Positions 44,201 through 47,200 of a stretch of 64,000 nucleotides of DNA are shown here, one piece after another (the stretch's first letter is position 1; every line of letters starts with the position of its first letter). Origin of the DNA: Pocillopora damicornis (taxonomy: Eukaryota); assembly GCF_003704095.1 (NCBI RefSeq), contig NW_020845377.1, forward strand, positions 1 to 64,000, written 5' to 3'. The notes beneath the pieces were generated by a model. It was not told the origin of the DNA, did not search any database, and saw only the letters and a program-made list of their open reading frames with translations. A program made the position numbers and the translations under genes.

Positions 44201-47200
44201 TAGATGCACGGAAAATCTTTACAAAAGTTCGCACACCGTTAGTGAAGCAAACTATATGTTTCATCCAGTTTTTTTTTCTTTTTTTGGATTTTCAAATTTA
44301 CTGCAGGCGTAGTAGGGAAAATCAAAACAACCGGAACACACCTGCAGTGAGCTTTCAACCGGACGAGAAAGCAGTCTCCATTTACGCCACCCCAACGGAT
44401 GTGTGTAACACGAGGTAAAACCTGTGAAAGTTTGTGGCCAGGATTACAATTCGACATTTCTTTGTCACTGATGGTCGTGTCGCTTCTACTTCACTACCTG
44501 CATCTGCCGTAAATCCTAAAATTGTCGCGCCCGGTGAGCTTTTTTCAAAGTCAGGTTGAGAGGGAGCGACGGGGTTTGTAACGTGTGTGTATATGAAGAA
44601 TCTTATCAAACACATACTTGCATGTTTTTCTGCTTTCAGTTCTGGCTGTGATGAAGAAGAAAATGATAATCGTTACACATATGTCAACCCGCCTGGAATG
44701 TATAATAACAGGTTAAACTAGTTTGCCAATTTTATTGATCAAANNNNNNNNNNNNNNNNNNNNNNNNNNNNNNNNNNNNNNNNNNNNNNNNNNNNNNNNN
44801 NNNNNNNNNNNNNNNNNNNNNNNNNNNNNNNNNNNNNNNNNNNCGAATCACTGAACTATTCAGCATAAAAATCGAGGGTGAATGTTATATAATTTTTTTG
44901 AATAAAAATCTTTCAGTTATTCAAAACGTAACAACAACCCCAGCGCATATTCTTGTTATTATGTTTGCAACTGCATGCTGTTAAGCTACTCACCCTACCG
45001 ACAGTCTATTACGCAATAGATAGCGAGTAGCGTAGCCAATCAGATTGTGACATTCGATTAGATTGCATATTCGCTTCATATTAATAGCCACCATCACAGT
45101 TACTACGTCTTCTTGTATCGGTCAATTTTGCGAGCTGTACTCTACTGAGCAGCTCGTTAAAGAAGAAAACTGTTTGTGTGGACAAAATCTCTCATTCCAC
45201 CCCTTCCCTTCCCCGAAGTAACTTCAAAAAAGTTATGACTTTCGTGGCCAAAGAGCAAATCGCAGCGGAGAAAACTTAAGTATGAACCATCAACTCGGTT
45301 AGTGTGAGGTATTTATAACCTTTTCCTCAAAAAGAGGGGACTTCTTGGACCTTGAGGTCACTCCATGCTACGCCCTCACATTTGAATTTTCTTTAAACGT
45401 ATTTCCGTTAATGGTTGTTAAGTTAAGCCTTAGAAATCATATCAAAACCTCAGTTTCATGTTAAGGCTACTGTATACTTTTGTCTTTCGTAAGCACATCC
45501 GTCTCCGATCGCTTTATCAAAAGGCAAATGACCTGGAAAATTATAAGCATACAAAAACATCACCCTTTTTCGAGAGAGTCAAATGTAGCTATGAAAGTTA
45601 TCGGATGTCTAAATGTTTAAGGTTTTTTGAGGCTTACCCCTAATCTTTATAGCTTGGTACCTGGCACGAAATCCTTTGCCTGACAGAGTATCATCTGATC
45701 GAAAAATAACCGTAACATTGTTTCCACTGGAATTTAATTGAGGCGTTGTCATGTCACAGACTGAACCAATCAACACTGTTGTTCCGTTCATTAGTGTTTC
45801 CAACACGTCGACATAGTCACACCAACAGCAACCGGACTCTAAACTGACGTCATCAAAAGTGATCAGAATAGCGTAATTCCAAGGGACTTCAATATGCCAC
45901 TTGCACCAGGCCTTGTTGTTATAGTTTTGTGGATAGTATGGACTGCGGAATGTGCCATTTAGTGCCGTCATTGTCTGCGTGCACTCTGTTCGAATGAAAG
46001 GAAGACTAAGTTGTGAAAAAATGTATAAATATTGACCAATAATTCTACCTCGAAGTTTAAGGGTGTGGCAATTTTTTTTTCTTTCGAATCGTTACAGGCA
46101 GGCTTACGAGGAAGGAGATTAGGTAAGAAAGTCGAAAACCGATTGGGTCACACAAGCGTGAACATCCAGGCCTAATTCAGATGATGAAATATTAGTGGCA
46201 NNNNNNNNNNNNNNNNNNNNNNNNNNNNNNNNNNNNNNNNNNNNNNNNNNNNNNNNNNNNNNNNNNNNNNNNNNNNNNNNNNNNNNNNNNNNNNNNNNNN
46301 ATAGAGGGAGTGGTCAATTCAAATTAAGCTGCAATCTTGACCAAACATTACCAAGACAACCTCTTAACCCTTTAACTCCCATAAGTGATTAATACGTAAC
46401 TTCTCCTTATAACATCCACACATTATCCTGGCAACATGTATTAAGAATACTCAAACTTATCAGGTAGGTCAGTTAGTAGTCTTGATCTAGCACCAAACAC
46501 TTGTGACTTATTTACAAGGAAATGTGTAGCAACTAGAAGGGAGAATTAACAATCTGATCTTGGGAGTTAAAGGGTTAAAAACACACGGAGAAAGTCCATA
46601 CTTTAAACTCGCTGATGTACACATTACATAAATCAGTAATGTTCGTGTTTTAAAAGTGATAAGCCATCAATGTTGACAGCGATGGTGGTGATCAGAGGTA
46701 TGAGTTAATATCCAATGCGGAAGGTTGAAAGAACTCCAAAACAAAAAACATAATATATGCGTTCTTTCACAGAAGTTTCCTGCAACCAATTTTCCAAGGA
46801 GTAATAAACTGAGTTATATGAATCGATCTTTAAGGCAATCCAATGGAAGCGTTCTCGAAATACAGAAGCAATAAGAAATATTTTGGTTGCTGATTTTAAA
46901 AATAAGGAGCATTCTAGTGTCAAAAAGTAATTCCCATCATTTTCACCACATCTCAGTTACGCATTAAGTAAAACTATCAATCGATCGTTATTCTTTGAAA
47001 TTTTGAATGAACTCAGAGAAGTAGGAAGATCTTTTGGTTTTCTTTTTCAATTTTAATATTAAATTATTCGTTTATTGAAATTTGTCTTGTCTTTAATCAA
47101 CAGTGAAAGTATGGCCACCTCTGCAAGAAATCCCGTCAAACAAAGTGAAAATCCTCTCTACATAGGCGGGTTAGCCAATGAGTATTCATACTTTACATTT

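Follow-up and report, generated by a model that had tools for sequence, protein, structure and literature searches.

The 64,000 nucleotide window analysed here (positions 1 to 64,000 of contig NW_020845377.1 of Pocillopora damicornis) contains the gene for a surface receptor, referred to here as receptor F, whose CUB exon is present in two versions. These versions, A and B, are likely two alleles of one colony, and we think it somewhat better than an even chance that the short patch in which they mainly differ belongs to a set of exchangeable blocks whose age and diversity are likely owed to balancing selection on surfaces with a predicted role in binding a foreign, probably microbial, ligand. 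A recognition receptor under long-term balancing selection is the best reading of F.

Receptor F is an expressed, spliced single-pass receptor of Pocillopora, composed of a signal peptide, an ApeC domain, a CUB domain, a Ser/Thr-rich stalk, a membrane helix and a tail with tyrosine motifs, in this order. The gene runs on the forward strand from the signal-peptide exon near 38092 to about 47802 and includes at least five tail exons. The first, signal-peptide-like exon (38092..38190, end approximate) was located by tblastn with residues 1-32 of P0280 (88%), in whose model residues 2-26 form a helix. P0280, a full-length relative of 604 amino acids with a P. verrucosa name, has the same domain order as F, and its tail carries two ITAM-like motifs (YxxL-x6-12-YxxL pattern) and one NPxY motif. 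The ApeC exon (41217..41862, start approximate) matches PF16977 with an E value of 1e-66 (225 bits against a cut-off of 26.5) and contains eight cysteines and three DxED motifs. Downstream of the CUB exon are found the exon for the stalk and membrane helix (43537..43840; helix 432-463 in the P0280 model) and two tail exons (44307..44414 and 44640..44709, the end of the latter approximate), all three supported by tblastn and by joints in RNA contigs. Such joints connect ApeC to the CUB exon at 42756 in four of four RNA runs, CUB to stalk in two of four, stalk to tail in all four, and the second tail exon in three of four. Three further tail exons (about 47099-47170, 47281-47322 and 47750-47802), detected by tblastn of P0151 and P0280, carry NPLY, YE and YSSL tyrosine motifs. 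A probable displaced tail exon of F lies on the reverse strand at 52229..52264, where 11 of 12 residues equal P0280 523-534 (weak, E 0.82); the inverted, gap-bounded piece holding it also matches 46307-46357. In Pfam the F-type protein has ApeC and CUB domains only, with no Ig-like ectodomain. The public gene models P0012, P0121 and P0151 break the cluster at 18404-47802: one fuses the receptors D, E and F, one is without ApeC and is named after a zona pellucida protein, and one holds stalk and tail only. Two intron repeats of F (about 43870-44040 and 43130-43200) are covered by polyA RNA contigs to a very high total depth (12,000-107,000 for the first) and are therefore probably common in transcripts of other genes.

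Version A of the CUB exon (42756..43100, forward strand, 345 bases, short class), which has RNA joints on both sides, and version B (45638..45985, reverse strand, 348 bases, long class) are both open, have intact AG/GT flanks and score 84 and 85 bits against the curated PF00431 cut-off of 21.4. The original prediction was that the two peptides differ mostly in one short patch, with about 8 of about 10 differences and an indel in some 25 residues, and both alignment and permutation agree with it. The proteins differ by 10 substitutions and a one-codon indel, and eight of the ten together with the indel sit within residues 51-74. At the DNA level there are 22 substitutions and one codon, of which 13 and the indel fall inside 42927-42975 of A (forward strand, residues 57-73), aligned with 45763..45814 of B (reverse strand). 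Divergence is 26.5% in this patch (13/49 aligned bases) and about 3% outside it (6/171 and 3/125, or 9 in 296 bases), a clustering with p = 5e-5 to 2e-4 in a scan-corrected permutation test (windows of 50-75 bases, 20,000 shuffles). Synonymous changes, also part of the prediction, were found in three neighbouring codons of the patch, and transversions make up 8/13 changes in the patch versus 2/9 outside. By codon, pN/pS between A and B, one pair only, is 0.77-0.93 in the patch versus 0.14 outside, and pS is 0.27-0.33 versus 0.09, a borderline difference (p 0.056) for a patch picked post hoc; the patch would therefore be older or less constrained, and not merely replacement-rich.

Version B is located on a piece of 1,357 bases between two 100-N gaps (44844..46200, reverse strand), inverted and inside a tail intron of F. 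This piece matches 42271-43352 end to end except for two intron indels of 270 and roughly 580 bases. No second copy of the ApeC, membrane, signal or tail exons was found in the assembly by tblastn, all other F exons being single, and seven stretches in 35.6-53.1 kb are each present exactly twice, at 81-98% identity, which is what a fragmented second haplotype would give, in a region with 17 N-runs between 37 and 53.2 kb. Given an inverted piece between gaps, doubled stretches and single copies of the other exons, the place and orientation of B are probably artefacts; its sequence is real, and B is most likely the other haplotype of the source colony, misplaced by scaffolding. The inverted copy is thus mostly an assembly by-product, yet it points to real hypervariability. 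Over residues 5-115 the protein of B is identical to the public protein P0069; it is present on four public contigs and its block type on 58, and some of the public contigs with the B sequence may stem from the source colony itself. Gap-bounded duplicates at 82-95% identity are also present in the 40 kb that follow on the scaffold, and the non-coding divergence is therefore not special to F. An island of such divergence around F is unsupported, and the control for it was unclean, with a tandem gene family in those 40 kb. The members of this family (scaffold 64001-94000) are short frames with a signal-like start and an acidic stretch, along with one Arg/Pro/Ser/Thr repeat, and look like secreted peptide precursors.

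Upstream of F, in the same orientation, are two paralogs recognised by Pfam and tblastn, the distant receptor D (core exons for ApeC, CUB, stalk and membrane helix at 20414..22910) and the nearest one, receptor E (the same core exons at 29502..32162; CUB 52% identical), both with an ApeC that varies little. Their architecture is common to F, to Stylophora proteins and to P0321, whose cluster has an Orbicella member. In Stylophora five F-like units lie in tandem on one scaffold, and in a tree the 15 rows of Pocillopora type group into a single clade (97/98) that excludes the Stylophora units. The CUB of E differs by one residue between two species' models, as against 11 between A and B within one assembly. 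In the CUB of D (21564-21941) five residues differ between two species' models, three of them in loop L5. JGI metagenome contigs gave no exact match and two distant CUBs at 33-36%, and the ESM Atlas gave no match at 0.9 or above.

The surroundings include a single-exon rhodopsin-family GPCR beside a tandem repeat array (1328-2245, reverse strand, and 2595-3389), and a probable membrane protein (13997-15222) in which a cysteine-rich exon without Pfam match precedes a Ser/Thr stalk and a hydrophobic helix. Downstream of F is an alpha-L-fucosidase gene, in whose first exon (54469-56289) of about 600 codons some 500, rich in Lys, His, Ser and Arg and without Pfam match, precede the enzyme domain.

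The predicted structure of the B domain (pLDDT 96) matches solved CUB domains with TM scores of 0.8-0.9 (up to 0.90). Residues E49, D56 and D97, which we take to be the calcium ligands of the CUB site, align with acidic positions of cubilin CUBs and are present in 406/457 (E49), 457/457 (D56) and 519/519 (D97) public contigs. In the model E49 and D56 would bound loop L5 and D97 would lie in L9, the loop numbers being derived from strand order and the cubilin alignment; judged from sequence, the CUB of F thus carries on L5 and L9 the acidic residues predicted for the calcium-binding subset. In calcium-binding CUBs these two loops are described as carrying the calcium site and binding ligands (PMC8051872). 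The prediction that the patch adjoins the ligand and calcium loops is only in part correct for A and B, as most of their differences are on a strand-loop-strand hairpin of the predicted fold (57-75), which starts beside D56 and ends at the far end of the domain, S51G being the only one inside a calcium-site loop. Across the population the calcium-site loops vary as well. Variable across public versions are L5 (49-54), residues 57, 59 and 61, the turn 64-68, residues 70-74 and L9 (95, 98-100), with 58, 60, 62, D56 and D97 invariant between them, so that strand 57-63 alternates variable and invariant positions. Cysteines C53 and C76 are absent together in 51 contigs, and in six C53 is absent with C54 gained; losses and shifts of this kind keep the cysteines paired, as expected of working proteins. 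One common CUB type (51 contigs; P0007, P0063, P0065) has Q in place of E49 and has lost C53 and C76 together, and is therefore probably short of one calcium ligand and of the disulfide typical of CUB domains. For ApeC no solved relative was found and the predicted model was poor; a two-copy model of the ApeC-CUB ectodomain, built without alignment, scored 0.00 and has no bearing either way.

A protein search of public sequences with A gave 10 clusters with 181 members, 102 of them among the matches listed. The CUB counts leave out two Stylophora units, P0009, P0011 (distant), P0012 (a model of A itself), P0018 (odd start) and six CUB versions found in ApeC clusters; A and B are also excluded from the diversity and per-position counts. 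The CUB exon has at least 46 distinct sequences among 76 full public rows. In 91 rows there are at least 21 types of the block 49-78, at least 10 of the block 95-102 and 34 combinations, from contigs which mix Pocillopora species without labels and in which assemblers can join blocks falsely; four-gamete conflicts are rare inside the first block and common between blocks. The second block contains a second hypervariable segment (43037..43054, forward strand; residues 95-100 in B numbering, the loop after D97), in which the A and B proteins are identical and for which the public rows have 10 types over 95-102. Contig-weighted protein diversity is 0.21 for residues 49-77 and 0.33 for 95-100, as compared to 0.034 for residues 5-48 and 0.032 in the F stalk. 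Six exons from D, E, the GPCR and the fucosidase gave 0.005-0.022 (largest pairwise difference 2.5-6.7%; in each case one cluster, of whose 134-462 members 15 were listed). Diversity in the patch is about six times that of the first 44 exon residues and at least ten times that of the neighbouring genes, and block 49-77 stays essentially unchanged at 0.20 when types possibly stemming from extra copies are left out. CUB diversity is far above background and is concentrated in exposed positions. The proposed hypervariability extends well beyond A and B. Nor is variation limited to one patch, since it is found in a second segment of the CUB and in the ApeC exon as well. The ApeC exon of F falls into three large classes, 84-97% identical to F, with a mean pairwise difference of 0.12 (38 cluster-stratified versions) versus 0.013-0.014 for D and E. 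All eight of its cysteines are invariant (38/38), the second DxED motif is altered in 16/38 versions and the third in 17/38. Variation in the eight residues after each DxED is 0.24 versus 0.10 elsewhere, a value reached by 3/199 shifts of a window picked after looking.

The F versions are, in our judgement, fairly probably alleles of one locus, and extra copies of F are likely on some haplotypes whether or not this is so. RNA evidence comes from four runs of four studies (among 40/385 letter rows and 32/5,354 pieces listed), in contigs that drop rare variants and from runs that may be pools. Among the matches listed, one or two versions are seen per exon, and the doubled exons differ between runs, as predicted by one diploid locus with recombination. 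In X15 there are two ApeC versions, one without differences and one with 26 in 277 bases (depth 13.7 + 15.5 of 29.1), and two CUB versions, one without differences and one with 24 plus 3 gap letters (depth 17.3 + 10.7 of 28), all among the matches listed. The second X15 CUB version has the extra codon, yet 24 differences where B has 17; it is therefore a long-class version in RNA, that is, of B's class and not B itself. Among the matches listed for the other runs, X20 has one ApeC version over 41322-41595 (24 differences, depth 21.2 of 21.2) and two CUB versions, X17 two of each, the ApeC ones being close, and X18 two ApeC versions and a single CUB contig, a recombinant with the short patch and four of B's flanking letters.

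The strongest competitor, possible and clearly the less likely, is that B comes from a tandemly arranged close paralog of F, or from a copy-number variant, the remaining exons of which were collapsed onto those of A or lost in gaps. The public versions would then be paralogs as well as alleles, with gene conversion exchanging their blocks. A contig of 1,953,731 bases, the longest, is listed for P0015 (an A-type exon), P0082 and P0083, and three versions on one 1.95-Mb contig would point to three copies. The tandem array of Stylophora points in the same direction, as do the three large ApeC classes (167, 141 and 155 members), D and E having one cluster of similar size each (145, 147), and the 17 N-runs around F could hide sequence. 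Short-read coral assemblies have been reported to miss tandem copies, in a paper that also gives a heterozygosity of 1.14% for a Pocillopora (PMC10236652). Against copies, a second ApeC, membrane or signal exon is absent from the assembly, the RNA runs have a single version of some exons but two of others, in a pattern that changes from run to run, and the B piece lies within F's own intron between unsized gaps. In addition, the four versions with the S102 mark (P0081-P0083, P0087), which include both extra ones of the long contig, are all short open frames of 60-70 amino acids; these may possibly be partial extra copies able to act as conversion donors. The allelic view of the original prediction is thus favoured by RNA and assembly, while the long contig and the Stylophora array argue for copies. 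As to the possibility that B is an unexpressed fragment, B is an exon-only fragment in this assembly, yet its protein is found on four public contigs and its block on 58, and a version with the extra codon is present in an RNA run.

It is rather improbable that there is no selection for diversity at all, with versions derived from different Pocillopora species or hybrid ancestry and a hairpin and loops that simply tolerate change. Public contigs without species names, the occurrence of the stretch in runs of three organism labels and a pN/pS near 1, as in relaxed constraint, would fit such an origin. However, in the same collection the patch is 4 to 40 times more variable than neighbouring genes, among them D and E with this very domain, A and B occur within one assembly, two models with P. 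verrucosa names differ by 15 CUB residues, and the paired cysteine changes and alternating variable positions also speak against it.

A single gene-conversion or template-switch event from an unrelated place in the genome is very improbable as the source of the patch, even if the sharp edges, the synonymous changes inside and the excess of transversions are what it would leave. The conversion tract of the original prediction found no donor in the assembly: a DNA search returned two matches only, the next best protein match was 52%, and two patch patterns with at most three mismatches match only A. Receptor E was rejected as donor, neither patch closely resembling it, and template switching was rejected in the absence of a local inverted source longer than 8 bases. 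Moreover, a single event cannot account for at least 21 types of the block, intermediate forms among them. That B is an assembly error or foreign DNA, as its small inverted piece between gaps might suggest, is scarcely credible and is refuted for the sequence itself by the public contigs with its protein and block and by its intact frame and splice sites.

Under the favoured reading of alleles kept by balancing selection, the ApeC domain and the CUB face would bind a foreign ligand and the tyrosine motifs of the tail would signal or drive uptake. An advantage of rare types could maintain the versions of F, and blocks favoured in this way would be retained and would accumulate silent differences as well. 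The blocks may be shuffled among alleles, at times also with extra tandem copies, by recombination or short conversion. Balancing selection, which the original prediction had put forward, is consistent with the excess diversity; pN/pS in the patch, for the one pair, does not exceed 1.

Very polymorphic recognition loci mark where animals tell self from non-self or race microbes. F is a named and expressed candidate for such a locus in Pocillopora, previously hidden by broken gene models. One amplicon suffices to type its 345-base CUB exon, so that associations with fusion of colonies, with symbionts or bacterial partners and with disease outcome are directly testable. If the versions were mostly tandem copies, F would still be a fast-diversifying receptor array, of a more ordinary kind. 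Polymorphic recognition receptors of invertebrates are already known; the architecture and the locus of F appear to be new, and no description of F or its variation was found in main texts of the literature.

Among known systems, the amphioxus proteins ACP1-5 resemble F in the eight cysteines and three DxED motifs of their ApeC domain, and ACP5, like F, pairs ApeC with CUB (PMC8361754). In ACP5 the CUB precedes ApeC, whereas in F the ApeC is followed by CUB, stalk, membrane helix and tyrosine-motif tail; the word transmembrane is absent from the main text of the ACP paper, and no mention of allelic hypervariability was found there (PMC8361754). ApeC of ACP3/5 is reported to bind peptidoglycan (PMC8361754), and a microbial ligand of F is favoured because amphioxus ApeC domains do so. 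The CUB of F has the fold of calcium-binding CUBs such as those of cubilin, neuropilin, TSG-6 and MASP (PMC8051872), with acidic positions aligned with cubilin. It differs from calcium-binding CUBs in being single and strongly polymorphic, in an extra CxxC pair and in the common type with Q49 and without C53/C76.

Hydractinia Alr1/Alr2 are, like F, cnidarian single-pass receptors of a tandem cluster with variable ectodomain and ITAM-like tail motifs, and their chimeric alleles, arisen by recombination, resemble the block shuffling of F (10.1101/2022.03.25.485889; PMC3342096). F differs from them in having no Ig domains, and it is not known to govern fusion or rejection or to bind in an allele-specific way. 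An unlikely but attractive idea is that F is an allorecognition determinant of a reef-building coral, using ApeC and CUB instead of Ig, with a specificity that would be combinatorial through recombining blocks (ApeC class, CUB hairpin with L5, CUB L9) and with signalling by the ITAM-like tail. Deeply diverged haplotypes at one coral gene over a low background have also been described in Acropora millepora, for the co-chaperone sacsin (10.1101/867754). That gene has two main haplotypes, whereas in F, which encodes a surface receptor, many block types recombine.
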